A DNA stretch of 59,029 nt. Origin: a virus (taxonomy: Duplodnaviria; Caudoviricetes). Below are positions 9,984 to 57,113 of the stretch, in pieces (the first letter of the stretch is position 1; each line of letters opens with the position of its first letter). The stretch lies in IMG/VR virus record IMGVR_UViG_3300021963_000146, positions 1 to 59,029 of that record; one strand, 5' to 3'. Under the pieces are notes generated by a model. That model worked only from the letters and a program-made list of their open reading frames with translations. It searched no databases and was not told the origin of the DNA. A program made the position numbers and the translations under genes.

Positions 9984-10030
9984 TCTCTCCGAGGCTCCCC
10001 TAGGTATTTATAAGTATTATAAGGATAATT

Positions 10031-26253: not shown

Positions 26254-26278
26254 TTTACCAGGGGACGCTAAAGAGAGA
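26254..26278 (+). promoter_or_regulatory. Putative phage RNAP promoter, class B, copy 2
   Basis: Exact 25-nt match to 9959-9983, with continued partial similarity downstream; intergenic. Confidence 0.75.
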
Positions 26279-26306
26279 ACCTCCCAAGCCTCCCTTGGTT
26301 ATTATT

Positions 26307-32871: not shown

Positions 32872-32880
32872 GGACATAAC

Positions 32881-33975: not shown

Positions 33976-33984
33976 GGAAACAAC

Positions 33985-34965
33985 ATGGCAATTATATTAG
34001 ACGGTACAAGGGGTGAAATACCCGCATCTTGGACTACAGCCGGACGCCCATCAAGTCCTAGTGCTGGTCAAATGGGATACAATACAACAACAGGAAATCC
34101 TGAATGGTATTCTTCTTTAGGTTGGACAAATTTTTCTCAATCTACCGCTTATACTTCTGATTTTTTAATTATTGGCGGAGGTGGTGGCGGAGGTAAATAT
34201 TACGGTGGTGGAGGCGGTGCAGGAGGCTACAGAACAAGTTGGACATCTTCTGCTGGAACATCTTCACCAAAAGCTTCTGGTGGAGGTTCTGCTGTTGAGT
34301 CTGCTATTACCTTAACAGCTGGAAGCATCTACACAATTATAGTAGGATCTGGTGGCGCTGGAACTAATACACCTTCAACTTCAGGTTCTACTGGAGTTGG
34401 CTCAAGTATATCAGGATCTAATGTCAGTATCTCTGTTAGCGGAGGAGGTGGTGGTGCTTATGCCACTCTTGCTGGTCTTTCTGGGGGTAGTGGTGGGGGA
34501 TCAGGTGGAGAAGGTGGATCACCACAAGTAGGTGGCTCTGGAACAGCAGGGCAAGGTTTTGCAGGTGGTAATGCATCAAGTACTAACAAAGCAGGTGGTG
34601 GTGGTGGAGCTGGTGAAGCAGGAAATACCGATGGTAGTGCTTTTGGTGGAGATGGTGTTTGGTCTGACATTACTGGTACAAGTATTGAAAGAGCTGGTGG
34701 TGGTCAAGCCTATTCAGATGGCACACAAGGCCAACCAGGATCAGGTGGTGGTGGTGCTGGTAACACAAATGCAACAGTAAATACAGGTAGTGGTGGTGGT
34801 GCAGACACTTCTGGTGGAGCTTCTGGATCTGGAGGTTCTGGTATTGTTGTTTTAAAAATATTAACAGCTAGGTATTCAGGTATTACTACAGGTTCACCAA
34901 CAATTACATCATCGGGTTTGTATACAGTTATTCAATACAACTCTTCGGGTACATATACAGCCTAA
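33985..34965 (+). CDS. Glycine-rich domain protein, paralog 3
   Basis: DFLIIGGGGGG ... GGSGIVVL framework. Confidence 0.75.
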   Translation: MAIILDGTRGEIPASWTTAGRPSSPSAGQMGYNTTTGNPEWYSSLGWTNFSQSTAYTSDFLIIGGGGGGGKYYGGGGGAGGYRTSWTSSAGTSSPKASGGGSAVESAITLTAGSIYTIIVGSGGAGTNTPSTSGSTGVGSSISGSNVSISVSGGGGGAYATLAGLSGGSGGGSGGEGGSPQVGGSGTAGQGFAGGNASSTNKAGGGGGAGEAGNTDGSAFGGDGVWSDITGTSIERAGGGQAYSDGTQGQPGSGGGGAGNTNATVNTGSGGGADTSGGASGSGGSGIVVLKILTARYSGITTGSPTITSSGLYTVIQYNSSGTYTA

Positions 34966-34983
34966 CAAAAAGGAAAATAAAAT

Positions 34984-35514
34984 ATGTCATACTTAGGTAT
35001 TCCACCATTTGGTAGAACAGCTAGAACTGTGACCGAAGTAATCGCTACATCTGGACAGACTACATTCTATCCTAGTGGTGGTTATACTGTAGGCTACATT
35101 GATGTCACACTAAATGGTATTACACTCTTATCAACAGACTATACTGCAACTGATGGTTTGTCTGTTGTTCTCAGCTCAGCCGCAGTACTGAATGATGAAC
35201 TAAAATTCACAACGTATACTGTTAACCTGTATGATGGTATTCCAAATCCATCTGGAAATGCAGGTAAATATTTAAAGACTAATGGTAGTACAAATTCATG
35301 GGAAACTGTAGATGCTCTCCCATCTCAAGCAGACAATGCTAACAAGTATTTAAAGACAGATGGAACTACAGCATCTTGGGCTACACTTACTGTATTGAAT
35401 AATATGCCTGTAACATTAAACAATGGTTCAACAGCATCAGTGTCTGTTGCACAAGGCTACTTACCAGTAATAACAAACACTGGTAGTACAGTAAATGTAT
35501 CTATTACCTCATAA
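34984..35514 (+). CDS. Fibre-associated protein
   Basis: ATSGQTTF...DYTATDG domain plus two GKYLKT.G..SW-type repeats. Confidence 0.6.
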   Translation: MSYLGIPPFGRTARTVTEVIATSGQTTFYPSGGYTVGYIDVTLNGITLLSTDYTATDGLSVVLSSAAVLNDELKFTTYTVNLYDGIPNPSGNAGKYLKTNGSTNSWETVDALPSQADNANKYLKTDGTTASWATLTVLNNMPVTLNNGSTASVSVAQGYLPVITNTGSTVNVSITS

Positions 35515-35523
35515 GGATTTTAA

Positions 35524-35793
35524 ATGGCAACCAAATATTCTCTAACAATTAATGGAACCCAGATTCAAGAGTTACAAAATGGTGACTCTCTATTGGGTTC
35601 TATTGCTAGCTTAACTGGTGGAACTGCTGGTAGCATTCCTTGGCAGAGTGCAGCAAGTACAACTGGATTTACCTCTGCAGGTACATCTGGTCAATTTTTA
35701 CAATCAAATGGTACTAGTGCACCTAGTTGGGTGACACCTACGTACGCATCAACTGGCAAGGCAATAGCCATGTCTCTCATTTTCGGATTTTAA
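35524..35793 (+). CDS. Small fibre-associated protein
   Basis: GQFLQSNGTSAPSW repeat. The C-terminal KAIAMSLIFG resembles the fibre C-terminus AISMAIALG. Confidence 0.55.
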   Translation: MATKYSLTINGTQIQELQNGDSLLGSIASLTGGTAGSIPWQSAASTTGFTSAGTSGQFLQSNGTSAPSWVTPTYASTGKAIAMSLIFGF

Positions 35794-35802
35794 GGAGTAA
35801 GC

Positions 35803-36177
35803 ATGGCTAACCCAAATATCGTTGGCGTAACAGCTATTTATGGCGCTACGTCTTATCTCGTACCTACAGGTACATCGGCTACTGCTTGGACAGCATTGAC
35901 TCCAGCAGTTGGCTCAGTAAATAAAGTAGGCTCTATTGTTGCGTCTAACGTAACAGCATCAGCCGCTAACATTACAGTGTCAGTCAATAGTGCTGTTTCA
36001 GGTGGTGGTACAGCATATCGTATTGCATATCAAATTAGTGTTCCTCCAAATGCCTCTCTTATTATTACAGATAAGACTACAGCATTCTATGTTGGTGAAG
36101 CACAGTCTGTAGTAGTAACTTCAGGCACAACAAACGCTATTGAACTTGTTGCTAGTTACGAAACAATAACAGCTTAA
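35803..36177 (+). CDS. Small virion/fibre-associated protein
   Basis: AAGGAG RBS; MANPNIVGVT...SYETIT. Confidence 0.6.
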   Translation: MANPNIVGVTAIYGATSYLVPTGTSATAWTALTPAVGSVNKVGSIVASNVTASAANITVSVNSAVSGGGTAYRIAYQISVPPNASLIITDKTTAFYVGEAQSVVVTSGTTNAIELVASYETITA

Positions 36178-36188
36178 GGAGGCACAAT

Positions 36189-37088
36189 ATGTCTCTAAGA
36201 TATACAGGTAATGTATTGTCTGCAAGTGTAGATGGAATTAGAACAGTTACTCCCAGTGTTGAGTACCTTGTTGTAGCTGGAGGTGGTGGTGCAGCTAATT
36301 CTTACGGCTCCGGAGGCGGTGCAGGTGGCCTTTTATCAGCAACAGGATACGCAGTTACTGCTGGCTCAAGTATTACTGTAACTGTTGGTTCTGGTGGTGC
36401 TGGTGGTGCTACTGGTTCAGGTGGTAATAACGGCTCTCAAGGTTCTAGCTCTGTTTTTGGATCTATAACAACCGTTGGAGGCGGTGGTGGAGTTTATGGA
36501 AACTATGGTGCCGGAGGTAATGGTGGATCAGGAGGAGGTGGTGCTGGCTACAGTGGAAGTGCTGGGGGTTTAGGAACTGCCAATCAAGGTTACGCTGGGG
36601 GTGCTGGTGCAGGTAGTCTTATAAAAGCTGGTGGAGGTGGAGGTGGAGCTGGAGGTGCTGGTGGTAATGGCAGTACTTCTGGAAAATATTCTGGTAGTGG
36701 TGGAACAGGCATTTGCTCTACTATTTCAGGTACACAAGTTTTTTATGCTGGGGGTGGGGCTGGAGGCGCTGAATCAGAAGGTGCTTCTGGTTATTCTGCT
36801 GGACTTGGTGGTGCTGGTGGTGGGGGTAATGGAACCGTAGGAAATTTTAATACTGGAGGCGGCTCTGGTACAACTTTTGTTGGTAACGCTGGTTTACCAA
36901 ATACAGGTGGCGGAGGCGGTGGTGCATGGCAATATACTGGTGGTGGAAATGGTGGCTCTGGTATAGTTATTCTCCGCTATCCATCTATTTATTTACCAGC
37001 AAAATCAACAACAGGTTCTCCTGAGACATATATTATAGGCGCATGGCGTGTATACAAATTTATTGCCTCAGGCACAATTACATTTTAA
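36189..37088 (+). CDS. Glycine-rich domain protein, paralog 4
   Basis: VEYLVVAGGGG ... GGSGIVILRYP ... SGTITF. Confidence 0.75.
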   Translation: MSLRYTGNVLSASVDGIRTVTPSVEYLVVAGGGGAANSYGSGGGAGGLLSATGYAVTAGSSITVTVGSGGAGGATGSGGNNGSQGSSSVFGSITTVGGGGGVYGNYGAGGNGGSGGGGAGYSGSAGGLGTANQGYAGGAGAGSLIKAGGGGGGAGGAGGNGSTSGKYSGSGGTGICSTISGTQVFYAGGGAGGAESEGASGYSAGLGGAGGGGNGTVGNFNTGGGSGTTFVGNAGLPNTGGGGGGAWQYTGGGNGGSGIVILRYPSIYLPAKSTTGSPETYIIGAWRVYKFIASGTITF

Positions 37089-37097
37089 GGAGTAGAT

Positions 37098-40000
37098 ATG
37101 GCAAGTGGATTATTTACACTTAAACAAGTAAATCAAGCTGTTCAACAAGGCGGCTGGTCAGGGTATAGTGCCCCTAAATGGGTTGAGTATCTTGTTGTCG
37201 CTGGAGGGGGTGGTGGTGGAACAGAAAATTCTGGTGGGGGCGGTGCAGGTGGTTTATTAACAGGTATTGCTACTGTAACTGCTGGATCTTCTTATACTAT
37301 AACTGTAGGTGCTGGTGGGGTTGGTACATCAACTAGTACTGCAACTGGATCAATAGGTTCAAATTCTGCATTTAATACTATAACTACTTTAGGTGGTGGA
37401 GGTGGTGGTTCCAGATTTTCAACAACTTCAATGTCTGGTGGTTCAGGAGGTGGAGCTGGTCAAAATAATGGAGGTAATTCTTCTTCCCCAAGATATGGTG
37501 GAGAAGGTACTCTTAACCAAGGTAATAGTGGTGGAACATATCTCAGCGATTCTCCAAGATGGGCAGGTGCAGGTGGTGGCGGTGCTGGAACGGCTGGAAC
37601 TGGTAGTACTACTTCAATTGCAGGTAATGGTGGTTCTGGCATATCTTCTAGCATTACTGGAGTAATAAAAACTTATGCAGGGGGTGGAGGCGGTGGTACT
37701 AGAGATGGTCTTATTCCTGGTTATGGTGGAATAGGTGGTGGAGGTACAGGTGCTAGTTCTAGCAGTGCAACTGGATCAAATGGATTAGTAAATACAGGCG
37801 GTGGTGCTGGTGGAGGTGGTCAAGGGTACTCTGGAGGAACAGGTGGTTCTGGTGTTGTTGTAGTTCGTTATCCAGGCAACGTACAATTTTACACTGGCGG
37901 TGCAATTACTTATGCTAACGGCTACATTGTTCACACGTTCGTTGCATCAGGCACATTAGTTCCTACTACACCAACAGTTATCACGACTGACTATCAAATT
38001 AGCCGTTCACTGCGTTTCAATAGCGCTGATTCTACTTATTTAAGTCGTACACCTGCAAGTGCAGGAAATCGTAGAACTTGGACATTAAGTTTTTGGATTA
38101 AGAAAACAGTTAATGGTGCAAGTTATACAAACATTTTTGGTGCAGGAAATAGTGCATCTAATAGGGCAGATATTCTTTGGCATCCAAGTGATTATTTACG
38201 TTATTATGACTATAATAATGCTTATAGTTGGTTTGCAGGAAGTTCCGCAGGAGGTTCTTGGAATCTTTACCGAGATACATCTGCTTGGTATCATATTGTT
38301 ATTGCAGTAGATACTACACAAGTAAATAATGCAGATAGGGTAAAAGGTTATATTAACGGATCATTTGTTCCAAATGGAAGTACTGATACATATACACAAA
38401 ATGCTGAAACAGCAATTAATTCTACGATTGCACATACATTAGGTTCTCATGCTGTATATGGCCAATATATGAATGCATACCTAACAGAAGTAAACTTTAT
38501 TGATGGCCAGCAATTAGCCGCCTCATCATTTGGAGAATTTAATACTAACACAAATGTATGGAAACCTAAATCTTATTCGGGTACATATGGCACTAATGGT
38601 TTTTATCTAAACTTTTCAGACAACTCATCTACAAGCTCAACAGGTATTGGTAAAGATTATTCGGGTAATTCAAATAATTGGACACCTAATAACTTCAGCG
38701 TGACTGCTGGTGTTGGCAATGACTCGGTAGTTGATGTTCCTACAAGCTATGGCACTGATTACGGTTTTGGTGGTACTGTTCGTGGTAACTATGCTACGCT
38801 AAACCCATTAAATGCTGGTAATTCTGCATTTATAACAAATGGCAATTTGGATATGACAGCCAATACAGTTGCTGAATGGAGGAGTGGTGTTAGTACAATT
38901 GCTATGTCTAGTGGGAAATGGTATGCAGAAGTAACTGTAAATAACAATTCAATGGTAGCAGGTATTGCAAAAGCAGATACTAATTTTACTGGAACAACTA
39001 CTTTTGTTGGTGGTAATTCTACTAGTTGGGGCGTATTAGTATCTACTGGTCAAGTATATAACAACTCAGGGATTCAATTTAATAATTTAAGTTATGCTGC
39101 TGGAGATGTAATTGGTTTTGCATTTGATGCAGATATAGGAACAATGACTTGGTATAAAAATGGCGTTGCTGCAGGCAATACTGTAACAAACCTAATATCA
39201 GGACCATATGTTTTTGGATTTTCAGTTTCTAGTAGTGGTTCAGGAAGTATAAATTTTGGCCAACGAGCATGGGCGTACACACCACCTGCTGGATTTAAAG
39301 CACTTTGCACACAAAATTTATCAGCCCCAACAATTGGATCAAGCCCAACAACTTTGGCGACAAATTATTTTAATTCTGTTTTATACACAGGCAATGGCTC
39401 TGCTCGTTCAATTACAGGTGTTGGGTTTCAGCCTGATTTTACTTGGATTAAAGCCAGAAGTGTTGCTTATTCACATCGCCTTGCAGATTCTGTTCGTGGT
39501 GCTGGTAAGGAACTTTATTCAGACGACACAGCCGCTGAGACAACAAATAGTGCAAATGGCTATGTAACATCATTTAACTCAGATGGATTTTCTTTAAGTA
39601 CTGGTATTGGCGTTAATGCTAATACTCAAACATTTGTTGCATGGAACTGGAAAGCCAATGGTTCAGGCTCAACCAACACAGCAGGATCAATTACTTCAAC
39701 AGTAAGTGCAAACTCTACAAGTGGATTTAGTGTGGTAACTTATACAGGCAACGGAACATCAGGTGCTACTGTTGGTCACGGCCTTGGTGTTACTCCGTCA
39801 ATGGTAATTTTAAAATCAAGAAGTGGTGGAACGTACGATTGGCGTGTTTATCATTCTGGGCTTACAGCAGGGTACAACATTGCTCTAAATACAGCTGCGG
39901 TACAATACCAAGGAAGTTCAGGAAATGCAGGTTACATAAGTGCTGTTGCATCTACCACTTACACTTTGACGCAATCAAACGCAAATCTTGATGCGGTTAA

Positions 40001-40385
40001 TGCAAGCGGCTCTACTTATGTCGCCTACTGTTTTGCAGAAGTAACAGGGTATAGCAAGTTTGGCTCTTACACAGGCAATGGTTCTGCTGATGGACCTTTT
40101 GTGTTTTGTGGTTTTAGACCCGCATATTTCTTAGCAAGAAATGCTTCAGGTGGTGGGAACTGGAATCTTTACGATAACACTCGTGGGTCATACAACTTAG
40201 ATACGCCATTTTTAATGCCTAATTCAAGTGCCGCAGAGTACACAGGCGGAATTGATTTGTTTTCCAATGGTGTAAAAATCAGAACAAATGATTCACCAGC
40301 GGGTTCTAATGTTAACCAAAGTGGACAAACTTACATTTTCATGGCATTTGCCGAGTCCCCATTCAAGTATTCTTTAGCGAGGTAA
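37098..40385 (+). CDS. Glycine-rich domain protein, paralog 5, with LamG/SPRY-like and repeated C-terminal domains
   Basis: Gly-rich N-terminus, then SLRFN...TWTLSFW..WYHIV (LamG-like), SGKWYAEV...GDVIGFAFD (SPRY-like), and repeated YTGNG motifs. Confidence 0.7.
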   Translation: MASGLFTLKQVNQAVQQGGWSGYSAPKWVEYLVVAGGGGGGTENSGGGGAGGLLTGIATVTAGSSYTITVGAGGVGTSTSTATGSIGSNSAFNTITTLGGGGGGSRFSTTSMSGGSGGGAGQNNGGNSSSPRYGGEGTLNQGNSGGTYLSDSPRWAGAGGGGAGTAGTGSTTSIAGNGGSGISSSITGVIKTYAGGGGGGTRDGLIPGYGGIGGGGTGASSSSATGSNGLVNTGGGAGGGGQGYSGGTGGSGVVVVRYPGNVQFYTGGAITYANGYIVHTFVASGTLVPTTPTVITTDYQISRSLRFNSADSTYLSRTPASAGNRRTWTLSFWIKKTVNGASYTNIFGAGNSASNRADILWHPSDYLRYYDYNNAYSWFAGSSAGGSWNLYRDTSAWYHIVIAVDTTQVNNADRVKGYINGSFVPNGSTDTYTQNAETAINSTIAHTLGSHAVYGQYMNAYLTEVNFIDGQQLAASSFGEFNTNTNVWKPKSYSGTYGTNGFYLNFSDNSSTSSTGIGKDYSGNSNNWTPNNFSVTAGVGNDSVVDVPTSYGTDYGFGGTVRGNYATLNPLNAGNSAFITNGNLDMTANTVAEWRSGVSTIAMSSGKWYAEVTVNNNSMVAGIAKADTNFTGTTTFVGGNSTSWGVLVSTGQVYNNSGIQFNNLSYAAGDVIGFAFDADIGTMTWYKNGVAAGNTVTNLISGPYVFGFSVSSSGSGSINFGQRAWAYTPPAGFKALCTQNLSAPTIGSSPTTLATNYFNSVLYTGNGSARSITGVGFQPDFTWIKARSVAYSHRLADSVRGAGKELYSDDTAAETTNSANGYVTSFNSDGFSLSTGIGVNANTQTFVAWNWKANGSGSTNTAGSITSTVSANSTSGFSVVTYTGNGTSGATVGHGLGVTPSMVILKSRSGGTYDWRVYHSGLTAGYNIALNTAAVQYQGSSGNAGYISAVASTTYTLTQSNANLDAVNASGSTYVAYCFAEVTGYSKFGSYTGNGSADGPFVFCGFRPAYFLARNASGGGNWNLYDNTRGSYNLDTPFLMPNSSAAEYTGGIDLFSNGVKIRTNDSPAGSNVNQSGQTYIFMAFAESPFKYSLAR

Positions 40386-40388
40386 CTA

Positions 40389-40886
40389 ATGTACGCATTA
40401 ATTTCAAATAATCAAATCACCGAGATAGGTGAATTACAAAAGTTGTTTCCTAATGAAATTCAACCAACTCATTTGTATGCTATTCAACATGGGGCTTTAC
40501 CCATTGTTGATGGTAACAGAGAAGATGAAAGATTTTATTGGGTTACATTCGACAAATATATCATAGAGGCTGACTCTGTTAAACGTAACTACGTTAATAC
40601 ACCAAAAGCTCTTGATGATGTCATTGAAGGTGAAAATACAACTAAAGGTTTAAAGTCACAATACACTACTCAATTTAAACACATAGCTAACTCACTGTTA
40701 GCAAGTACTGATTGGATGGTAATTCGAAAAGCAGAACGTAATGTAGCTATTCCAAATAATGTAGCAACAAAACGTTTAGCGATTCTTAATGAGTGTGACA
40801 GGCTTATTGCAGCAGTAAATTCTGCCCAAGATATGCCAACTTTTATTACAGCAGTTCAATCTGCAAACTGGGGAACAAATGAGTAA
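40389..40886 (+). CDS. Putative tail fibre assembly chaperone-like protein
   Basis: LLASTDWMVIR motif; located among fibre genes. Confidence 0.5.
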   Translation: MYALISNNQITEIGELQKLFPNEIQPTHLYAIQHGALPIVDGNREDERFYWVTFDKYIIEADSVKRNYVNTPKALDDVIEGENTTKGLKSQYTTQFKHIANSLLASTDWMVIRKAERNVAIPNNVATKRLAILNECDRLIAAVNSAQDMPTFITAVQSANWGTNE

Positions 40887-41763
40887 TCAATTAGGTGGTA
40901 TTATATCAGCCACCTATAATCCTCTTGCAGGATCTCCCTCCACTGTTGAATACCTTGTGGTTGCAGGTGGAGGTGGGGGTGGTGGTTATCGTGGAGGTGG
41001 TGGCGGTGCTGGTGGTTTGCTTACTGCTGCTTCTTTTTCTGTTTCTACAGGTTCTGCTTTAACTATAATTGTTGGTTCTGGTGGTGCAGGACAATTAAAT
41101 ACTGGTTATGGAACAAACGGCTCTAATTCAGTATTTAGCTCTATTACCGCAACAGGTGGTGGTGGCGGTTATGGCAATGGTGGTGGCGTTCCAAATGGCG
41201 CTGTAGGTTCAAATGGCGGTTCTGGAGGTGGTGGCGGTGGCAATGCCTCTAGTGCAAATTCTGGTTTTGCAGGTGGTACTGGTGTTTCTGGACAAGGCTA
41301 CGCTGGAGGCGGGTCATATTCCGACAATTCTAATTACACAGGTGCTGGTGGTGGTGGTGGCTCTGGTTCAATTGGAATTACTGCTTCTACTATGAAGTCA
41401 GGTAATGGTGGTACAGGCACTTGTTCAACAATTACTGGTCAACAAGTGTTTTACGCTGGTGGCGGTGGCGGTGGTGCTGATGGTGGTGCATCTGTTGGAT
41501 TGGGTTCTGCTGGCGGTGGTATGGGTTCTAATGCTACTCCGGGAAATGGCACTCCGGCATTAGCAAATAGCGGCTCTGGTGGCGGTGGAGGCGGCGGTTA
41601 TTCGTCAGGAAGTACAGGCGGCAACGGAGGCTCAGGAATCGTAATTATTCGTTATCCTGCTACAGCATCTCTTCCAGTAGCTATTACAGGCAATCCACAA
41701 ATCCGTTATGCAAACGGTTATCAGATATATATTTGGACCTCAAGTGGTTCAGTAACATTTTAA
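40879..41763 (+). CDS. Glycine-rich domain protein, paralog 6
   Basis: VEYLVVAGGGGG ... GGSGIVIIRYP ... SSGSVTF. Confidence 0.75.
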   Translation: MSNQLGGIISATYNPLAGSPSTVEYLVVAGGGGGGGYRGGGGGAGGLLTAASFSVSTGSALTIIVGSGGAGQLNTGYGTNGSNSVFSSITATGGGGGYGNGGGVPNGAVGSNGGSGGGGGGNASSANSGFAGGTGVSGQGYAGGGSYSDNSNYTGAGGGGGSGSIGITASTMKSGNGGTGTCSTITGQQVFYAGGGGGGADGGASVGLGSAGGGMGSNATPGNGTPALANSGSGGGGGGGYSSGSTGGNGGSGIVIIRYPATASLPVAITGNPQIRYANGYQIYIWTSSGSVTF

Positions 41764-41774
41764 GGAAATTAGAT

Positions 41775-42134
41775 ATGGCACATTATGCAAAAGTAACAGA
41801 TGGTAAAGTAACACAAGTAATCGTTGCTGAACCAGATTTTTTCGACACATTTGTAGACTCTAGTCCAGGTCAATGGATTCAAACAAGCTATAATACTCAT
41901 GGTGGTCAGCATCCTGAAGGACGACCATTGCGCAAGAACTATGCAGGAATCGGCTACACTTATGATGCACAACGAGATGCATTTATCCCTCCTAAGCCAT
42001 TCCCATCATGGACGCTTAGTGAAGAAACCTGCTTGTGGTCTGCACCAGTTGCAATGCCTACAGACGATAAGATGTATACATGGGATGAACCAACAACAGC
42101 ATGGGTTGAAGTAACACCACCTACAGGAGCTTAA
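41775..42134 (+). CDS. Phage hypothetical protein associated with glycine-rich fibre clusters
   Basis: MAHYAKV...WIQTSYNT...RKNYAGIGYTYD...AFIPPKPFPSW. Start re-called to ATG 41775 (AAGGA RBS). Confidence 0.65.
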   Translation: MAHYAKVTDGKVTQVIVAEPDFFDTFVDSSPGQWIQTSYNTHGGQHPEGRPLRKNYAGIGYTYDAQRDAFIPPKPFPSWTLSEETCLWSAPVAMPTDDKMYTWDEPTTAWVEVTPPTGA

Positions 42135-42135
42135 T

Positions 42136-43023
42136 ATGCCACAATACTCAGGCATTTGGACGTTAAGTCAGGCAAGCCAAGCTATCAAAGATAACAATTG
42201 GACTGGAATTCCTCCACAGAATGTCGAGTATTTAGTTGTAGCTGGAGGTGGTTCTGGTGGAGGTGCTCCATCTACAGGTTCTAATGGCGCTGGAGGAGGT
42301 GGCGCAGGCGGCTTGCTTGCTGGATTCTCTGGCATTACTGCTGGATCATCAATCACAGTAACTGTAGGCGCTGGTGGAACAGGTACAACCACAGTCGGTG
42401 CAAACGGAAATAACTCTGTATTTGGAAGCATTACCGCAACTGGCGGTGGTAAAGGGGGTTATTCCAATAGTACTGATAGTGGAGTAGGTAGTTCTGGCGG
42501 CTCGGGAGGTGGTGGTTCTTCATACACTTCTAATGGCGCTGGAGGATCAGGAACATCTGGTCAAGGTAATGCAGGTGGAACAGGTAGTTCTACTGGTAGC
42601 GCATACGGTGGGGCTGGTGGAGGTGGTGCAGGGACTATTGGACTAAATGGTTCTGGCAGTAACGCTGGAAATGGCGGTGCTGGAGTTGCATCTTCTATAT
42701 CTGGAGCAGTAACTACTTACGCTGGTGGTGGTGGTGGTGGCTCCTATATAAGTCCCGGTAATACTGGCGCAGGTGGTGTTGGTGGAGGTGGCGCAGGAAA
42801 TCACAACGCTAATGGAACTTCTGGAACAGCCAATACAGGCGGTGGTGGTGGTGGCGTTGGTTTAGGCGCATATAGCGGTGGTAACGGCGGTTCAGGCATT
42901 GTTATTATCCGCTACCCAGACACATTCTCTCCAGCAGTCTCAACCACAGGCTCTCCAACAATAACAACAACAGGTGGCTTCAGGATTTACAAGTGGACTT
43001 CCTCAGGGTCTATAACATTTTAA
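42136..43023 (+). CDS. Glycine-rich domain protein, paralog 7
   Basis: VEYLVVAGGG ... GGSGIVIIRYP ... SSGSITF. Confidence 0.75.
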   Translation: MPQYSGIWTLSQASQAIKDNNWTGIPPQNVEYLVVAGGGSGGGAPSTGSNGAGGGGAGGLLAGFSGITAGSSITVTVGAGGTGTTTVGANGNNSVFGSITATGGGKGGYSNSTDSGVGSSGGSGGGGSSYTSNGAGGSGTSGQGNAGGTGSSTGSAYGGAGGGGAGTIGLNGSGSNAGNGGAGVASSISGAVTTYAGGGGGGSYISPGNTGAGGVGGGGAGNHNANGTSGTANTGGGGGGVGLGAYSGGNGGSGIVIIRYPDTFSPAVSTTGSPTITTTGGFRIYKWTSSGSITF

Positions 43024-44562: not shown

Positions 44563-44573
44563 TAGTAATAAAT

Positions 44574-44603
44574 GGTCACCCTGTAAAAAGGGTGGCCTTT
44601 TTT
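44574..44603 (+). terminator. Intrinsic terminator ending the structural operon
   Basis: GGTCACCCT-GTAAAA-AGGGTGGCC followed by TTTTTT. Confidence 0.85.
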
Positions 44604-44608
44604 ATCAA

Positions 44609-44681
44609 AAAAGTGAGAAAAATGACGTATCTATAATGAAGAAATATCATTTAGATAGAGTACTCAAAATTAAATAAACTC
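44609..44681 (+). repeat. Direct repeat copy 1; putative class A (early) promoter
   Basis: The 41 nt AAAAGTGAGAAAAATGACGTATCTATAATGAAGAAATATCA are identical to 44878-44918, followed by a shared AGATAGAGTACTCAAA. Confidence 0.8.
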
Positions 44682-44697
44682 TTTAAAAGGTAATATC

Positions 44698-44922
44698 ATG
44701 AGCTATGAAATTGATGTTTTGTTTAACAAAGTATTCGATTCTGAGAAAATGAGAAACTTCGGACATGTGCCACACGAAAGTTTAACCCCACAAGCAGTAC
44801 ACCGCATTACTCGCTCTATGGGTGAATATAAATCTTTTGATGATGTCTGGGCTGAAACATTTGCAAAAAGTTACTTTAAAAGTGAGAAAAATGACGTATC
44901 TATAATGAAGAAATATCAATAA
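44698..44922 (+). CDS. Hypothetical early protein
   Basis: 74 aa with an AAAGGT RBS; its 3' end is encoded by repeat copy 2. Confidence 0.65.
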   Translation: MSYEIDVLFNKVFDSEKMRNFGHVPHESLTPQAVHRITRSMGEYKSFDDVWAETFAKSYFKSEKNDVSIMKKYQ

Positions 44923-44948
44923 AGATAGAGTACTCAAATTAATAACTC
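44878..44948 (+). repeat. Direct repeat copy 2; putative class A (early) promoter
   Basis: Matches copy 1 and is followed by an AAGGAG RBS and ATG 44961. Confidence 0.8.
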
Positions 44949-44960
44949 AAGGAGAGTAAA

Positions 44961-45245
44961 ATGAAAAAGATAGTATTTGCAACAGCGTTAGTATTGCTTT
45001 CTAGCTCAGTGTTTGCTAATAGACCTTTAATGGTTGAAATGGTTAATGCAGAGAGCTATGTTGATAATCTTATAAAGGATGATGTGATTAAAGCCAAAGA
45101 TAGAGCATATTATGTATGTCAAGCTAAAGCTTTACTAAAGGCTGGAGATGATCTTGTAAAAGAGATTGACAATAGTCCTAATCCGCTTAAAACTGTTAAA
45201 CCAATGGATCCTGAAAAAATCATGAAACATTGTAAACACAACTGA
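44961..45245 (+). CDS. Hypothetical secreted protein
   Basis: Sec-type signal peptide MKKIVFATALVLLSSSVFA. Confidence 0.7.
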   Translation: MKKIVFATALVLLSSSVFANRPLMVEMVNAESYVDNLIKDDVIKAKDRAYYVCQAKALLKAGDDLVKEIDNSPNPLKTVKPMDPEKIMKHCKHN

Positions 45246-45287
45246 TGAGTCTTTATTAGACGAAACCGCTGAGAAGCGGTCTTGTGT
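45236..45287 (+). ncRNA. Type I hammerhead ribozyme
   Basis: Stem I ACACAA/TTGTGT, core CTGATGA, stem II GTCT/AGAC, GAAA, stem III CCGCT/AGCGG with a GAGA tetraloop, and a GTC cleavage triplet at 45279-45281. Confidence 0.92.
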
Positions 45288-45313
45288 ATTTCCCTTTAAC
45301 TATGGAGTTTAAA

Positions 45314-45724
45314 ATGAAAAAGTTCTTTATTGTGTTGACTTTGTGTGTAGCAAGCGTTTCTTCTTTTGCAGAGGAAGCCTTCTGTAAGCCAAAGGAGACC
45401 TTGAAGGTTGGTACTTATGGTGCTTTAGCAGGTGCTGCTGCAGCCTTGTTAATCCCTGGAGCTGGTCCTGTTCTTGCTACAAGTATTGTTACAGGTACTT
45501 TGGCAACTACAACAAATGTAGCAGTATGTGCATTTGATGAGAAAGATCGTAAGGATAAGTTAGCCTTGTTCAACGAAGCTAACAAACCTACAGCCTTTGA
45601 AAAAGCTGTTGTTACACCAGTAGAAGATCGTAGCATTAAGGATAAAGCAGTAATTGGCTTAACTTTAGGTTACGCAAAAGCTCACGAAGGTGTTTCTAAA
45701 GTGTACGATAACCTTACTAAATAA
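45314..45724 (+). CDS. Hypothetical secreted/membrane protein with a glycine-zipper-like segment
   Basis: Signal peptide MKKFFIVLTLCVASVSSFA and GALAGAAAALLIPGAG. Start re-called to ATG 45314 (GGAG RBS). Confidence 0.7.
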   Translation: MKKFFIVLTLCVASVSSFAEEAFCKPKETLKVGTYGALAGAAAALLIPGAGPVLATSIVTGTLATTTNVAVCAFDEKDRKDKLALFNEANKPTAFEKAVVTPVEDRSIKDKAVIGLTLGYAKAHEGVSKVYDNLTK

Positions 45725-45732
45725 GAGGATAT

Positions 45733-45828
45733 ATGTTAGAAGAAATTCTTAGCATTGGTTTAGCGGCTATAATTGCAGTAGCTTTGGTAGTTGCGTTGGT
45801 CAATAGCATTACCCTTTTAATTCAATAA
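45733..45828 (+). CDS. 31-aa single-pass membrane peptide (not in the ORF track)
   Basis: GAGG RBS; MLEEILSIGLAAIIAVALVVALVNSITLLIQ. Confidence 0.6.
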   Translation: MLEEILSIGLAAIIAVALVVALVNSITLLIQ

Positions 45829-45837
45829 GGTTTTAAA

Positions 45838-45948
45838 ATGAGAAAGTTTTTTGAATCAGAAACATTTATAAACATTGTAACTGCTATTGCTATTGGTTTA
45901 GGCCTTTGTGCATTAGTGTTACATGGTCTTGATGCTTTAGTTCAATAA
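45838..45948 (+). CDS. 36-aa single-pass membrane peptide (not in the ORF track)
   Basis: TAAGG RBS; MRKFFESETFINIVTAIAIGLGLCALVLHGLDALVQ. Confidence 0.6.
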   Translation: MRKFFESETFINIVTAIAIGLGLCALVLHGLDALVQ

Positions 45949-45957
45949 GGATTTAAA

Positions 45958-46071
45958 ATGATTTATTTTGTATATAACAAAGCCACTGGTAGTTTAATTA
46001 CAACCGTTGCATACATAGAAGACTTAAAACAGTTTAATCCTGAACTTGTAAGTGTAGTAACTTACATGTAA
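45958..46071 (+). CDS. 37-aa small protein (not in the ORF track)
   Basis: TAAGGA RBS; MIYFVYNKATGSLITTVAYIEDLKQFNPELVSVVTYM. Confidence 0.6.
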   Translation: MIYFVYNKATGSLITTVAYIEDLKQFNPELVSVVTYM

Positions 46072-47261: not shown

Positions 47262-49436
47262 ATGGATAATAATATTCTTGATAAATTAGTATTAGACTTA
47301 AATAAGCGACAGTCTGTATTAAGGGCTGATCGTAATATTTATACCCACTATTTAAAAGATATTGATTCTAAACTTTTAGTTGATATATCTTATCCTCATA
47401 TTCTCCGTGGACTAGAACGTAATGGTACTCTCGTAGATATTATTGCTACTATTGGTCGTAGAGTTAGACAATCTTTGGATTTACCTAACGATACAATCTC
47501 TGATGCACAAGTTGGCTGGTTTATTTGTATTGCCTATATTGAATGTAATATATTAAGTTTCAAACTTAAATATACATACAAGAATGGTAAGAAAAGTAAA
47601 TACCAGGCTTACTTCTTCCAGATTAAAGACTGGAAAGCAATTAAAGAACTCTGGGGTTTAATTGATCAAACTAAGGTTGATATATTCCCATTGAGAGAAG
47701 CACCTCAGCCATGGTCAACAGCTTACAACAATTTAGGCGTACCTATTATTAAGAAAGGGCATTCAACAGCTTTAGCTCAATTTAAGGAAGATGATAAGCA
47801 AATGCTTTATGATATCCTGAACAAGCTACAAGCAACCGGATGGAGAATTAATAACGATATTCTTCCTGTCTATAAGTACTTCTTACATAAGAATACTACA
47901 CCTAGCCCATTCAAGATCCACACTGAGATTGATGAAGAGAAAAAGAAATCACTGATTATTGAAGCAGATGCTATTGAGCAGCTTGCTGAGAGTCATAAGG
48001 ATAATGCTTTTTATCATGTATATAACTTTGACTTCCGTGGTCGTGTATATGTGAATACTGCATTTCTTCATGAACAGTCTAGTGATAATGCCAAAGGTTT
48101 ACTCTTACTAGATCAAGCTACACCACTAGGTGAGAATGGTTTGTTCTGGTTAAAAGTTCACACAGCAAACTCTTTCGGAAACGACAAGGTGACGCTAAAG
48201 CAGAGAGCCGAGTTTGTAGATGAAAATATTAATTTGTTTTTATCTTATGCAGAGAAACCAACTATTAATCAAGGTTGGATTGATACTGATGCTCCTTTCT
48301 CTTTCTTAGCCGCTTGTAATGAACTTAGGAAAATTAAAGAATGGCTTATGCAAGGTAATCAGTTAGCAGACTATGAATGTCCTCTACCTGTTTATATTGA
48401 TGGTTCTAATAACGGTGTTCAGCATCTAGTGGCTATGTCGCAAGATGAAGATATTGCACCACTAGTTAACCTAGTACCACAAGAACTTCCTGGTGATGTA
48501 TACATGTATATTGCAAAATATGTATGGCAGAATTTACAGGAATTAGCAGATAAGCTTACTCAAGAAGAGCGAGATCAGTTTGATGAGGTCTATAATACGG
48601 CTAAGTCACTCCAGAAAGCTTACTTTGATGCTCCAGAAAAGACAGAGCAAAAGGCACTAGCCTATGCTGCTGCTCAAGAATGGAGAAATAAGAATCGTGC
48701 TATTAGAGAGAAATTGTTTCCTATTTACTGGCTTAAGATTGATAGCCCTAAAGATCAACGTAAAGTAGTAAAGAGAAACGTTATGACTCTTGGCTATGGC
48801 GGTACAGCCTATGGTATGGGTCAGCAAATCATAGATGATACACGAGATATGTCAGAGTATCTGCGTGATAAAGAACATCTCTGGGGTGCTATGTTGGGTG
48901 ATCTGGTGTTTGAGACTTGTTACGAAAAACTCAAAGGACCAGCTACAATGCTTCGTATGTTTCAAGATCTTGCACAAAGATCTAACAACAAAGATGTATT
49001 CCTTAAGTGGACAACACCTGTAACTAACTTTCCAGTTGTACAGGCATATCGTAAGCCATCTATTGTTCGTACCAAACTAAAGTACGGTGAAGAAGAATTA
49101 AAGATTCAACTTCAAACTTGGGAGGAGGCCACTATTAACAAAGACTCTCAAAAGACAGGTGCTGCACCAAATATCGTGCATAGCTTTGATGCTGCTCACC
49201 TAACAATGACTGTTGTATCTGCACCCTATGAAATGACTGTTGTTCATGATTCCTTTGGCACATTGCCTGGACGTATGGATGATTTGTTTTATAGAGTTAG
49301 AGAACAGTTTGTAGAGTTCTACAAGAGTAAACCTCTGGAAAAATTATTGTCTGAACTTGAATGTGAAGACCTAATTCCAAATAGGGGTAAGCTTGATGTA
49401 GGACAAATTGTGTACTCTGATTATGCTTTTTGTTAA
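47262..49436 (+). CDS. T7-family single-subunit DNA-directed RNA polymerase (RNAP2)
   Basis: DFRGRVY, motif A IDGSNNGVQH, motif B RKVVKRNVMTLGYG, PNIVHSFDAAH, motif C VHDSFG, and C-terminal YAFC. Confidence 0.96.
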   Translation: MDNNILDKLVLDLNKRQSVLRADRNIYTHYLKDIDSKLLVDISYPHILRGLERNGTLVDIIATIGRRVRQSLDLPNDTISDAQVGWFICIAYIECNILSFKLKYTYKNGKKSKYQAYFFQIKDWKAIKELWGLIDQTKVDIFPLREAPQPWSTAYNNLGVPIIKKGHSTALAQFKEDDKQMLYDILNKLQATGWRINNDILPVYKYFLHKNTTPSPFKIHTEIDEEKKKSLIIEADAIEQLAESHKDNAFYHVYNFDFRGRVYVNTAFLHEQSSDNAKGLLLLDQATPLGENGLFWLKVHTANSFGNDKVTLKQRAEFVDENINLFLSYAEKPTINQGWIDTDAPFSFLAACNELRKIKEWLMQGNQLADYECPLPVYIDGSNNGVQHLVAMSQDEDIAPLVNLVPQELPGDVYMYIAKYVWQNLQELADKLTQEERDQFDEVYNTAKSLQKAYFDAPEKTEQKALAYAAAQEWRNKNRAIREKLFPIYWLKIDSPKDQRKVVKRNVMTLGYGGTAYGMGQQIIDDTRDMSEYLRDKEHLWGAMLGDLVFETCYEKLKGPATMLRMFQDLAQRSNNKDVFLKWTTPVTNFPVVQAYRKPSIVRTKLKYGEEELKIQLQTWEEATINKDSQKTGAAPNIVHSFDAAHLTMTVVSAPYEMTVVHDSFGTLPGRMDDLFYRVREQFVEFYKSKPLEKLLSELECEDLIPNRGKLDVGQIVYSDYAFC

Positions 49437-51701: not shown

Positions 51702-52272
51702 AATATACTCATATGGCAAAAACCGTGGTATAGTAGCAACCTATAATGACTTTGAACATGCTGTCACTGCATGGAAAGACAATATGGATTTCTTTACTAT
51801 TAAATGTGTTTGGCCTACCAGTGTTAAAAATCGTTCTAAGGAATTAAATCATATTAATTCTATAAATGAATATCGTAACTTACTAAAGCATTGGGCAATT
51901 GAAGATGGCGATGATGAATGGGAAGTAGATCAACTTATGAAATACTTAAAAGAGAATCCAGAACCAGTAGAGACTAATACTCTTAATCCTAACTACCAGA
52001 GTGCTATTAACCCTAGCCACTATCAGAGTTATGTAATGGATTTACAATGGCTAGAGACTATGCAGTATCTCCCTAGCTTCCGTGACCCTATTTGTTTTAA
52101 AGCAGCTGTAGAGTTACAAGTACGAAAGTATCTAGACCGCTTAGGTGGTAAAGATGCTGAACAACAAGAACTTGGTAAGGCATTATGGTATTTAAAATTC
52201 CTTCTTGCCTATACTAAGAACAATAATCAACCAATCCGAATTAAAGATATTGAAAAAATTTTAAATGAGTAA
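51682..52272 (+). CDS. DUF3310-like protein with an N-terminal extension
   Basis: AINPSHY ... KYLDRLGGKD..QELGKALWYL. Confidence 0.65.
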   Translation: MYVPIYEIYSYGKNRGIVATYNDFEHAVTAWKDNMDFFTIKCVWPTSVKNRSKELNHINSINEYRNLLKHWAIEDGDDEWEVDQLMKYLKENPEPVETNTLNPNYQSAINPSHYQSYVMDLQWLETMQYLPSFRDPICFKAAVELQVRKYLDRLGGKDAEQQELGKALWYLKFLLAYTKNNNQPIRIKDIEKILNE

Positions 52273-54142
52273 TCTAGTATTTGACATCGAAAGTGATGGT
52301 CTACTAGACACCGTAAGCAAAGTCTGGATGATTGTGACTAATGATACTGTAACTGGTGAAGAGTTAATCTTTACTGACTACAATCCACAATATCCAAGCT
52401 TAGCGCAAGGCTTACAATACCTATCGAAAGCAACAAGTTTAATTGGCCATAATATTATTGGTTATGACTTACTTGTTCTCCGAAAACTATACAATTGGGT
52501 TCCTAATAAAGAAACGAAATTATATGATACTATGCTGTTATCACAGGTAGTAGACTATGATCGATTCAACGGGAAACATTCTCTAGCTGTATGGGGTGAG
52601 TACCTTGGGCATAGTAAAGTTGAACATGAAGACTGGAGTCAGTATTCAGAAGACATGCTACATCGGTGTAGAGAAGACGTAAAGATCAACGTAAAAGTCT
52701 TTAAACGACTTAACAAGGAAATTAAAACTCTAACAGAGAAAAAACCTTATTTAAAAAATTCTATTAAGAATGAGCATATTACCGCACAATTTTGTGCTGA
52801 TGCAGAATACGTGGGGTGGCAATTTGATAAAGAATCCGCAACAAACCTTCTTGCTAAGATGGAAGCTCAAATGGCTGAAGTTCAAGCTATCATTGAGCCA
52901 AGGCTTAGTGTTGAAACTAAAGTTATTGATCGAGACCCTAAGCTACCAAAGTGGATTAAGAACGGTAATTATGATGCCGTTACTGCTCGATATTTTAATA
53001 TTGATCCTACTAATGGCAGGGATGTTCGTCTGGTAGAAGGTCCATATCAAAGGTTTGAGTATGTTCAACCTGACTTAGGTAATATTGATTCTGTCAAACT
53101 TTATCTAAAGAAAATTGGTTGGGTGCCAGATGACTGGAACTGGAAGAAGCAAGGAAATGAGTTTATTAAAGTATCTGAAAAGCTAACTACTAGCTCACTT
53201 GAAAAGTTAGGTGATGTTGGTATGCTAATCGATAAGTATTATACAACTCGTTCACGACATTCTATTCTATCAGGATGGATGGAGTCACTAGATGAGAATA
53301 ATCGATTACATGGTAGTTGTTTTACTATCTCTACTCCAACTGGTCGTGCTAGACATAGTGGTATTGTCAATGTTCCAGGTGCTGACTCAGAGTGGGGCGC
53401 TGATATTCGCAAATTATTTGTGGCCAGTCCTGGCTATACAATTATTGGCGCTGATTCTTCTGGTAATCAATTTAGGGCGTTATGCCATTATTTGAAGAAT
53501 GAAGAATATACAAACGAAGTTTTAAATGGAGATGTACATCAGAAGAATGCAGATGTATTAACTGCTGTAATGGCTGAGGAACAGTCTAACTTTCCTAAAA
53601 TCATTAAAGACCCTACTATTTCTCGTAAGTTAGCTAAGCCATTCATTTATGCTTATTTGTTTGGTGCTGGCGGTGAGAAAGTCTCATTGATTCTTACAGG
53701 TGTTCGTAATGCTAAACTAGGCAATAAAATTAAAGCTGAGTTTGCAAAACGTATTCCTGGATTAGCACCACTAATCAAGAGAATTAATGCAGTGTACAAT
53801 CAAACAGAAAACCATGGTAACCCTTGGATTCCTGCATTAGATGGTAGAAAGATACCTTGTGAGTCTGCTCATAAGTCTCTAAACTATCTGCTACAAAGCT
53901 GCGAAGCTATTACATGCAAGGCTGCTACAGCTGTTGCTTATACCCGACTACAACAGGAAGGTATCCCATTCAATCCTTTGATATTTTATCATGACGAGAT
54001 TGAATTTGAAGTTCCACATGAGTATGCTGAAAAAGCTGCTCTAATTGCAAAGGAAGCTTTCCGTGATGCACCTAAGGAGTTTGGTGTAATGATCATGGAT
54101 GGCGAAGCTAAAACAGGTAAAGATTGGTACGATGTCCATTGA
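52265..54142 (+). CDS. DNA polymerase family A with a 3'-5' exonuclease domain
   Basis: FDIESDGL, GHNIIGYD, TGRARH, motif A GADSSGNQFR, motif B RKLAKPFIYAYLFG, motif C HDE. Confidence 0.95.
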   Translation: MSNLVFDIESDGLLDTVSKVWMIVTNDTVTGEELIFTDYNPQYPSLAQGLQYLSKATSLIGHNIIGYDLLVLRKLYNWVPNKETKLYDTMLLSQVVDYDRFNGKHSLAVWGEYLGHSKVEHEDWSQYSEDMLHRCREDVKINVKVFKRLNKEIKTLTEKKPYLKNSIKNEHITAQFCADAEYVGWQFDKESATNLLAKMEAQMAEVQAIIEPRLSVETKVIDRDPKLPKWIKNGNYDAVTARYFNIDPTNGRDVRLVEGPYQRFEYVQPDLGNIDSVKLYLKKIGWVPDDWNWKKQGNEFIKVSEKLTTSSLEKLGDVGMLIDKYYTTRSRHSILSGWMESLDENNRLHGSCFTISTPTGRARHSGIVNVPGADSEWGADIRKLFVASPGYTIIGADSSGNQFRALCHYLKNEEYTNEVLNGDVHQKNADVLTAVMAEEQSNFPKIIKDPTISRKLAKPFIYAYLFGAGGEKVSLILTGVRNAKLGNKIKAEFAKRIPGLAPLIKRINAVYNQTENHGNPWIPALDGRKIPCESAHKSLNYLLQSCEAITCKAATAVAYTRLQQEGIPFNPLIFYHDEIEFEVPHEYAEKAALIAKEAFRDAPKEFGVMIMDGEAKTGKDWYDVH

Positions 54143-55635: not shown

Positions 55636-55820
55636 AAAGAGCACTAGTATATCAAGTCCCCTCAGCAACATACACTTATCCTCGTGGTGATAAGTATTTG
55701 TATCTCAGCTTTGTAGATCGTCCTACAATTATTAAATACAAGGTACGTAATAAAGTAGGTCAAAAGCTTCTTGCTCGTGTTAAGAAGTATGGCTACGAGA
55801 AAGTAACCTACCCAGTATGA
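55632..55820 (+). CDS. Hypothetical basic protein
   Basis: ATGA-coupled on both sides. Confidence 0.55.
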   Translation: MKRALVYQVPSATYTYPRGDKYLYLSFVDRPTIIKYKVRNKVGQKLLARVKKYGYEKVTYPV

Positions 55821-56515
55821 TTGCATTAGTAGACGGAGACGTTCTACTATATCAGGCAATTTGGGGTACTGAAGACGTAGAAGAAGCTAAAATAAAATTA
55901 GACGAGGTTCTTCAAGCTGTTATTGAAAACACCTTTTGCAGTGACTATATCATTGCAATTGGTGGTCCTAACAATTGGAGGGAAGAGTTCTTTCCTGAAT
56001 ATAAAAAGAGTAAAGCAAGGTTAGCATCTAAGAAGAATAGAGCAGAACACTTTGATGCTTTAAAGGAATGGTTTTGTAATCAACCTAATACAGTAGTTGC
56101 TCACGGATTTGAGGCAGATGACTTAATCCGAATCTGGGCACTCGAAGCTATTAGAGATGGTGATCCTTATATTGTATGTACAATTGATAAGGACTTGGAT
56201 TGTATTCCAGGAAAGCATTTCAAACCAGGACGGGATGAGTATTACGAAGTAAATGAAGATACAGCAGATATCCACTACTGGCGACAGATTCTTATGGGCG
56301 ATGCGGTAGATAATATTCCTGGACTTAGTAAAGTAGGTCCAGTGAAAGCCAATAAGATCTTAGAGGGCTGTGATAATAATAATAAAAGAAAGGCAGCAGT
56401 AATAAATGCATACAAAGAACATTATGGTGACCAGTGGAAACCTTATTTACTTGCCAATGGCAGGTTAATCCACATCTGGCGTCACATTAATGACCACTTC
56501 CAAGTCAAAGAATAA
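55817..56515 (+). CDS. 5'-3' exonuclease / RNase H (T7 gp6-like)
   Basis: DGDVLLY, EADD, DKDL and GDAVDNIPG motifs. Confidence 0.9.
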   Translation: MIALVDGDVLLYQAIWGTEDVEEAKIKLDEVLQAVIENTFCSDYIIAIGGPNNWREEFFPEYKKSKARLASKKNRAEHFDALKEWFCNQPNTVVAHGFEADDLIRIWALEAIRDGDPYIVCTIDKDLDCIPGKHFKPGRDEYYEVNEDTADIHYWRQILMGDAVDNIPGLSKVGPVKANKILEGCDNNNKRKAAVINAYKEHYGDQWKPYLLANGRLIHIWRHINDHFQVKE

Positions 56516-56936
56516 AGATAACGGACACTGGAGTTTCCCAGAACAACTTGATCATGAGAATGCCTTTGGATTTATCTATCTTATAAAGAATATTAATACT
56601 GGTATGATGTATATTGGTAAAAAGATATTTAGAGGTACAGGTAAGATAAACAAAGGTAAACCAAGCAATTGGAGAGTATACACAAGTTCCTCTAAAGATA
56701 TTAATAATATGATAGAGGAAATAGGTATAGACTCCTTTGAGTTTCATGTACTAGAACAGTATTATACACGAGGTGGTTTGAGTTGGGCAGAAACATGGTC
56801 TCAGTGTTATGTTGAGGTTCCTACTAATAATCACATTTGGTATAATCGTTTTATTGATAAAGTTCAATGGCGATCTTCAGAAGTAGTATCGGCTAGACAC
56901 AGAAAAAGACTAACTAAATTAGCAGGATTAAAATGA
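56490..56936 (+). CDS. GIY-YIG-like nuclease
   Basis: GFIYLIKN..TGMMYIGKK ... W..Y.SSS ... E ... WYN. Confidence 0.7.
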   Translation: MTTSKSKNKDNGHWSFPEQLDHENAFGFIYLIKNINTGMMYIGKKIFRGTGKINKGKPSNWRVYTSSSKDINNMIEEIGIDSFEFHVLEQYYTRGGLSWAETWSQCYVEVPTNNHIWYNRFIDKVQWRSSEVVSARHRKRLTKLAGLK

Positions 56937-57112
56937 AGGCAGTAGGTATCACCTTAGGTTTTTGTGCATTGTTATTGATGTTGTTTCAATCAGTAAGGTT
57001 AATTATCACAATGGAGCCATGGAATTCAGCAGATTTTTTAATTGTATCTGCAACAATGAGTTTCATGTCAACTGTACTTATAACAACAGGAAGATTATTT
57101 AGCGATAAATAA
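56933..57112 (+). CDS. 59-aa two-pass membrane protein (not in the ORF track)
   Basis: AGGA RBS and ATGA overlap; MKAVGITLGFCALLLMLFQ...FLIVSATMSFMSTVLITTGRLFSDK. Confidence 0.6.
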   Translation: MKAVGITLGFCALLLMLFQSVRLIITMEPWNSADFLIVSATMSFMSTVLITTGRLFSDK

Positions 57113-57113
57113 A

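Follow-up and report, generated by a model that had tools for sequence, protein, structure and literature searches.

A type I hammerhead motif at the junction of two small genes, ahead of the RNA polymerase gene in an uncultured T7-like phage

A self-cutting RNA probably cuts the message between two neighbouring cistrons in the phage genome analysed here. On the plus strand, the 52 bases from 45236 to 45287 form a type I hammerhead motif when read base by base, and on the whole we consider it probable that this is a genuine ribozyme which cuts the message between a small upstream gene and a small downstream gene. The parts of this reading do not all carry the same weight. That a real hammerhead fold has been kept under selection is very likely, and active self-cleavage in vivo can be predicted with good confidence. 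Separation of the cistrons, or a differential stability of the resulting pieces, is only slightly favoured as the purpose of the cut.

The window, by which we mean the whole stretch of DNA that was analysed, is an entire viral record of 59,029 bases, classed as linear and estimated to be 85% complete. All of its long ORFs are on the plus strand. Profile matches identify portal, scaffold, major head, tail and tail-fibre-like genes between 134 and 44562, a single-subunit RNA polymerase gene at 47262–49436, a DNA polymerase at 52265–54142 and an exonuclease with a primase/helicase at 55817–58745; judged from these matches, the gene order is a T7-like layout. A strong terminator-like hairpin after the last tail-fibre-like gene closes the structural block. 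The small ORFs that separate it from the RNA polymerase gene match no family, and two of them flank the ribozyme. The preliminary description of this DNA had spoken of an "early operon". A location within a probable early region is indeed plausible, given the succession of terminator, small ORFs and RNA polymerase gene, although this timing follows from gene order and synteny with T7 and not from direct observation. The features surrounding the ribozyme are the following:

44574–44597, plus strand: terminator-like hairpin with a T-run that closes the structural block (terminator scan)
44609–44649 and 44878–44918, plus strand: exact direct repeat of 41 nt, a putative promoter element, with these two copies only in the window
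44961–45245, plus strand: upstream small ORF of 94 amino acids, no family match
45288–45313, plus strand: remainder of the downstream gene's leader, containing GGAG at 45304–45307 (direct reading)
45314–45724, plus strand: downstream small ORF of 136 amino acids, no family match

The two proteins flanking the ribozyme could be assigned to no family in searches of Pfam and PHROGs; by eye, the N-terminus of both is hydrophobic and resembles a signal peptide. A small ORF comes shortly after either copy of the 41-nt repeat. Copy one stands immediately behind the terminator-like hairpin, copy two lies upstream of the ribozyme-bearing transcript, and the repeat is promoter-like by this position and a weak consensus match only. 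In DNA contigs of sequencing run X2, the bins over 44567–44700 reach a summed contig depth of 160–222 compared with about 5–10 nearby, with many contigs branching at the edges. The repeat looks like a regulatory (promoter-like) module common to many phages of the run X2 community.

The ribozyme itself is built from the following elements, where the family means the viral matches to the motif that were aligned in this work:

45235, plus strand: unpaired A on the 5′ side of stem I (family position −7), an A in 48 of the 63 listed distinct members with a 6-bp stem I
45236–45241, plus strand: 5′ strand of stem I, ACACAA, pairing with 45282–45287; covaries in the family
45242–45248, plus strand: catalytic core strand C3 to A9, CUGAUGA (direct reading, ORF list and descriptor)
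45249–45261, plus strand: stem II hairpin, GUCU/AGAC with loop UUAUU and the G10.1–C11.1 closing pair; the fourth pair covaries in the family
45262–45264, plus strand: core nucleotides G12, A13 and A14 (GAA; direct reading)
45265–45280, plus strand: stem III hairpin, the A15.1–U16.1 pair plus CCGCU/AGCGG with loop GAGA; a compensatory change from C-G to U-A in L002 and L013
45281–45282, plus strand: predicted scissile bond, after C17 (45281), from the hammerhead consensus
45282–45287, plus strand: 3′ strand of stem I, UUGUGU, the start of the downstream fragment (direct reading)
45288, plus strand: unpaired A on the 3′ side of stem I (family position +7), an A in 47 of the 63 listed distinct members with a 6-bp stem I

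Every nucleotide of the hammerhead core is present: C3 U4 G5 A6 N7 G8 A9, then G12 A13 A14, the A15.1–U16.1 pair, and at position 17 (H, not G) the C at 45281. This is the core definition as quoted from Perreault et al. (2011; PMC3088659), and it is the one that we used for membership. Around the core stand three helices of 6, 4 and 6 perfect pairs. Stem I, ACACAA against UUGUGU, consists of six Watson–Crick pairs and is open, while stems II and III are closed by loops. In stem II the strands GUCU (45249–45252) and AGAC (45258–45261) form four perfect pairs; stem III has A45265–U45280 as its outer pair, six pairs in all, and a GNRA loop (GAGA, 45271–45274). The TGA stop codon of the upstream ORF (45243–45245) is identical with core nucleotides U4, G5 and A6, and the codons within the 5′ strand of stem I specify the final residues of that ORF, H and N, which are fixed in all relatives. 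Downstream, an ATG at 45314 is preceded by the GGAG, such that a cut after 45281 would leave a leader of 32 nt. The preliminary description had given the core, the three stems, the GNRA loop, the stop codon within the core and the 32-nt leader, all of them correctly according to our direct reading. Its central claim, a canonical type I hammerhead, is strongly supported by the wider family, by covariation, by the score of a covariance model and by comparison of the locus between related contigs.

The sequence of events that we infer is as follows. The ribozyme would be transcribed within a message that covers the small genes ahead of the phage RNA polymerase gene. Self-cutting of the RNA after C45281 most likely follows as soon as stems I to III have folded. 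Hammerheads cleave by leaving a 2′,3′-cyclic phosphate on one product and a 5′-OH on the other; transesterification 3′ of C17 would thus place the cyclic phosphate on the upstream piece and the 5′-OH on the downstream piece. In hammerheads a change at G5, G12 or A14 leaves the core inactive. The upstream fragment would keep its stop codon, 36 nt before the new end, and would finish in the hairpins of stems II and III, the last of which is G+C-rich with a GNRA loop and should slow 3′ exonucleases. Since stem I is only 6 bp long and A/U-rich, the downstream mRNA could leave with a free 32-nt leader; this fragment would begin with the 5′-OH and carry the ribosome-binding site of the gene at 45314–45724. 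The likely use of such a cut is a host-independent split of neighbouring cistrons into units with a stability of their own. A different effect, unmasking of the ribosome-binding site by the cut, finds no support in modelling, in which the unpaired probability of the site is lower after the cut (0.29) than before it (0.52–0.55).

The motif at 45236–45287 is not a product of chance, because a loose type I descriptor matched once in the window, precisely at this position, whereas 300 shuffles of the entire window that preserved dinucleotides, searched on both strands, gave no match. The descriptor required CUGANGA, 3 or more pairs in stem II, GAAA, 4 or more pairs in stem III, U-H and 4 or more pairs in stem I, with G-U pairs allowed. 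Type II hammerhead descriptors matched nowhere in the window. A type III descriptor gave one weak match on the minus strand at about 1302–1369, with stems of 3, 3 and 4 pairs and lying antisense inside the portal gene; it is probably a chance match, at least one such match being found in 5 of 100 shuffled windows.

Comparison with the Rfam hammerhead models, which the preliminary description had proposed as a check, had a divided outcome. At the gathering thresholds there was no match anywhere in the window, but a permissive search of a 251-nt stretch returned Hammerhead_1 (RF00163; type I, clan CL00010) with the model aligned end to end over 45236–45287, the same topology and core, and a score of 25.3 bits against a gathering score of 34 (E 3.1e-4, a value valid for the 251-nt stretch searched). 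With such a score the motif would be missed by routine annotation based on Rfam. The gathering score is a curated cut-off of one model and not a structural feature, and by its defining features of sequence and predicted structure the motif is a type I hammerhead which fails only this score cut-off. A second model, the RAGATH-1 hammerhead (RF03152), aligned partially over 45217–45286 with 26.2 bits against a gathering score of 56.3. We reject this identity on account of the low score and the 4-bp stem II, where the model consensus has a single pair; the additional 5′ hairpin of the model is not convincingly present either.

Support for selection on the locus comes from its relatives. A search with the downstream protein found three related viral contigs (L001–L003), a scan of metagenomes with the same protein one more (L122), and a pattern scan of viral contigs a further independent one (L013). 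The ribozyme is at the same junction in all five. In L001–L003 it is 92–100% identical to that of the window, compared with 56–58% for the DNA and 37–41% for the protein of the upstream ORF, 68–86% for the DNA of the downstream ORF and 71–100% for the remainder of the leader (45288–45313). The window's variant recurs unchanged in L001 and L122. L003 differs from it in a single loop II base, which is G in both L002 and L003. L002 shows four differences: this loop II base, the outer stem I pair changed from A-U to G·U, and a stem III pair in which C-G has been replaced by U-A in a compensatory manner. The same stem III replacement is present in L013. Read from three distinct sequences only, these substitutions are a sign of selection on the fold. 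A BLAST search of 44600–46000 against deposited phage genomes returned no match. As a separate observation, three metatranscriptome runs contain small parts of the window in the form of contigs, and one such contig ends at 45237, which is the start of the ribozyme and not the cut; contig ends are expected at sequences shared between strains.

The same class of ribozyme is found far beyond these relatives. We derived a family pattern from the window's own sequence, in which the core, the GUC and, in stems II and III, the three outer pairs were kept constant while stem I was left free, and found it in at least 117 stretches of viral contigs. Among the 124 matches listed, which come from 121 loci, seven belong to the window's own relatives. 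Although the pattern does not ask for it, stem I has at least 4 bp in 121 of the 124 matches listed, with the lengths distributed as follows:

6 pairs: 92 of the 124 matches listed
5 pairs: 19 of the 124 matches listed
7 pairs: 6 of the 124 matches listed
4 pairs: 4 of the 124 matches listed
3, 1 or 0 pairs: 3 of the 124 matches listed, one of which ends at a contig end

From the matches listed we aligned 78 distinct sequences, the window's relatives being left out. Under the hammerhead structure 97.5% of the cells in this alignment can pair, against 31–40% when the partners are slid by one to three columns. Changes on both sides of a pair occur in all six pairs of stem I, in one pair of stem II and in two pairs of stem III, and the covariation score is 0.615 compared with 0.116 in column shuffles. 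In this respect the outer stem II and stem III pairs, which the search pattern fixes, are uninformative. A covariance model built from the same alignment (R1) and hence without the window's relatives recovered the ribozyme at 45233–45290 with 67.8 bits (E 1.9e-19), and its full-length alignment fits the three-helix layout. Because the pattern was taken from the window, those portions of stems II and III that it fixes contribute to this score in a partly circular way; no such circularity touches stem I, the inner pairs, the sizes of the loops or the flanks. As to further ribozymes in the window, none was found: with its filters off the next best score of R1 was 12.6 bits, and Rfam at gathering thresholds gave nothing.

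In its details the window is a typical member. Among the matches listed stem III usually has 5–6 pairs (6 in the window), and of the 70 distinct sequences listed 33 close it with a GNRA loop and 6 with a UNCG loop, the window having GAGA; such loops fit a stable hairpin at the 3′ end, as predicted for the upstream fragment. The window carries both of the flanking As typical of the family (45235 and 45288). With regard to a tertiary contact between stem I and loop II, of the kind by which hammerheads cleave fast at low Mg, no pairing partner of loop II was established, the 6-bp stem I and the A/A flanks being typical. This A/A-capped form with a 6-bp stem I may represent an abundant, phage-specific sub-class, here scoring below the Rfam gathering threshold. 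Among prokaryotes (185,579 species, one genome each) the pattern was found in just 11 stretches, 10 of them in contigs of metagenome-assembled genomes, which makes the class one mainly of uncultured viruses; the same scan gave no clue to the host. Two contigs of the family show a clustered arrangement, unlike the single copy of the window: within a span of some 3 kb, L058 carries four members of this hammerhead class (3293–6043) and L037 carries two, at two sites, in both cases between small ORFs.

The gene context of the family is regular downstream of the ribozyme. We examined 80 distinct contexts with enough flanking sequence among the matches listed. In 78 of these an ORF of at least 40 codons starts with ATG no more than 200 nt further downstream, the median distance being 35 nt (32 nt in the window), and 48 of the 78 have a Shine–Dalgarno-like word. 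The upstream side is more varied. In 49 of the 80 listed contexts a frame in the sense direction, 60 codons long or longer, ends inside the ribozyme, a frame of this kind is on the other strand in 16, and in 31 no long frame runs in. Counted from C3, the stop codons of the listed contexts lie at −8 (9 cases), −7 (3), −5 (1), −4 (3), −3 (15), +1 (13), +11 (4) and +14 (1), the 13 cases at +1 being those in which the stop is the core TGA, as compared with 15 at −3. Overlap with a stop codon, occurring in 49 of the 80 listed contexts and at many registers, therefore looks ordinary for the class and without fixed geometry, which on the sequences compared would reflect tight packing of genes and not a fixed coupling.

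These registers bear directly on the suggestion made in the preliminary description that terminating ribosomes modulate the core. Cutting of a real hammerhead could in principle be gated by translation if a ribosome terminating at the core UGA unfolded stem I, the core and stem II, and cleavage would then report whether the upstream cistron is translated. The stop codon is within the core in the window, in L001–L003 and in L013, and, as described above, the upstream frame often ends inside the ribozyme. However, the register varies widely, from −8 to +14 across the listed contexts, and 31 of these lack a long incoming frame, a picture that tight packing alone would give. We thus find no support for the earlier suggestion and regard gating by translation as unlikely. 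Its more pointed version, in which the ribozyme is a translation sensor because the terminating ribosome keeps the core unfolded and the message is cut only if the upstream cistron is idle, appears quite unlikely. If it were true, the downstream early gene would be linked to ribosome traffic in its stability or translation.

A real and conserved hammerhead might also have a main role other than the control of expression, either as a selfish or neutral passenger or as a joint at which cassettes of early genes are exchanged between phages. The ribozyme is far better conserved than the gene upstream of it, and its class is very widespread in unrelated viral contigs. In addition, a 268-nt DNA contig of run X2, from another sample, matches 45234–45285 only, with two differences, and then continues in unlike sequence, meaning that the same ribozyme occurs in a different flank in another phage. 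All of this would suit a passenger or a joint. On the other hand, the substitutions at the locus keep the structure, and the covariation across the family indicates selection on the fold and not only on the sequence, as would be sufficient for a recombination patch; moreover, the orientation and the distance to the following start codon are constant, which suggests a function within the mRNA. We therefore consider a passenger or exchange joint quite improbable, and a ribozyme acting on the message that contains it remains the preferred reading.

Whether the particular variant of the window folds well enough to be active is a question raised by the nearest-neighbour model, in which an alternative hairpin between CUGAUGA and the loop II region (−16.8 kcal/mol) is 1.4 kcal/mol better than the hammerhead (−15.4 kcal/mol) and the pairing probability of stem II is only 0.14. 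A core trapped in this hairpin would leave the motif real but slow or inactive. A gap this small falls inside the error of an energy model that also ignores tertiary contacts, the hammerhead fold is the energy minimum in L002 and L003, and the very same variant recurs unchanged in L001 and L122, all of which makes a ribozyme trapped in a slow or inactive state very unlikely, though some loss of speed is conceivable for this variant.

It is scarcely credible that the element is no ribozyme at all and that an intrinsic terminator or 3′ stabiliser hairpin (45265–45280 with a U-rich tail) happens to lie beside a chance core-like sequence: a simple scan does list this hairpin as terminator-like, but its tail (CTTGTGTATT) is interrupted and constitutes a strand of the ribozyme's stem I, one which in the family is variable and not U-rich as a rule, so that a terminator cannot explain the motif, and the absence of the full motif from all 300 shuffles, the structure-preserving changes by which the core and stems I and II are conserved, and the R1 score of 67.8 bits argue further against it. 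A weak additional terminator effect in the window's clade is conceivable beside the cutting by a hammerhead that we favour.

Hammerheads between small genes of phages and prophages have been in print since 2011, and the example of the window is an ordinary one and no new kind of system. In Perreault et al. (2011; PLoS Comput Biol, PMC3088659), hammerheads are reported to flank individual genes or small gene groups in prophages and phages. Clustered examples, including a cluster associated with a prophage, cleave in vitro when carried in fragments, about 2 kb long, of native polycistronic RNAs; one cluster cleaves in E. coli, and the role proposed is processing into gene-length mRNAs. The same text mentions intergenic examples in the lytic phages PaP3 and Bcep176, and a halovirus with a hammerhead in its early region, for which a 5′ end has been mapped within three nucleotides of the cleavage site. 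A review of 2019 (PMC6765202) still treats the purpose of phage hammerheads as open. The hammerhead of the window shares with those of PMC3088659, as described there, the canonical core, the sense orientation and the position between co-directional small genes of unknown function, and host-independent processing of a polycistronic transcript is the hypothesis already published for them. It differs from the clusters in that text by being a single copy of a minimal form of type I, whose open stem I measures 6 bp and in which no pseudoknot is evident, and by its carrier, an uncultured T7-like phage. In open-access articles (text without supplements) we found no report of a hammerhead in the early region of a T7-like phage or of the A-capped sub-class with a 6-bp stem I.

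A processing role for the ribozyme is a plausible prediction. The early mRNA of T7 is processed at RNase III sites, and the hammerhead resembles these sites in its place between what are probably early cistrons of a T7-like phage, as well as in the stable hairpin with which the upstream product would end. The two differ in that the hammerhead is predicted to depend on cleavage by the RNA itself and not by a host enzyme, and would yield a 5′-OH and a cyclic phosphate; the comparison can only be taken as an analogy of effect. What the locus adds is one clean and comparatively supported hammerhead in the early region, as inferred from synteny, of an uncultured T7-like phage. A locus with a single ribozyme between two small genes is also a simple place to test the effect of the cut on the stability and translation of its neighbours. 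For the annotation of viral metagenomes it matters that standard Rfam thresholds miss what may be a very common sub-class of phage ribozymes.

Elsewhere in the window, a 50-nt direct repeat (82% alike) is present in the structural block at 9959–10008 and 26254–26303; by eye it contains an internal inverted repeat, and it might serve the phage as a promoter or a terminator. Three paralogous glycine-rich genes at 36189–37088, 40879–41763 and 42136–43023 match phrog_2295, many families of Gly-codon repeats extend across 32000–43000, and the ORF at 27241–30936 contains tandem repeats rich in Ala, Ser and Thr. The glycine-rich paralogues and the repeats constitute an expanded set of fibre-like proteins.
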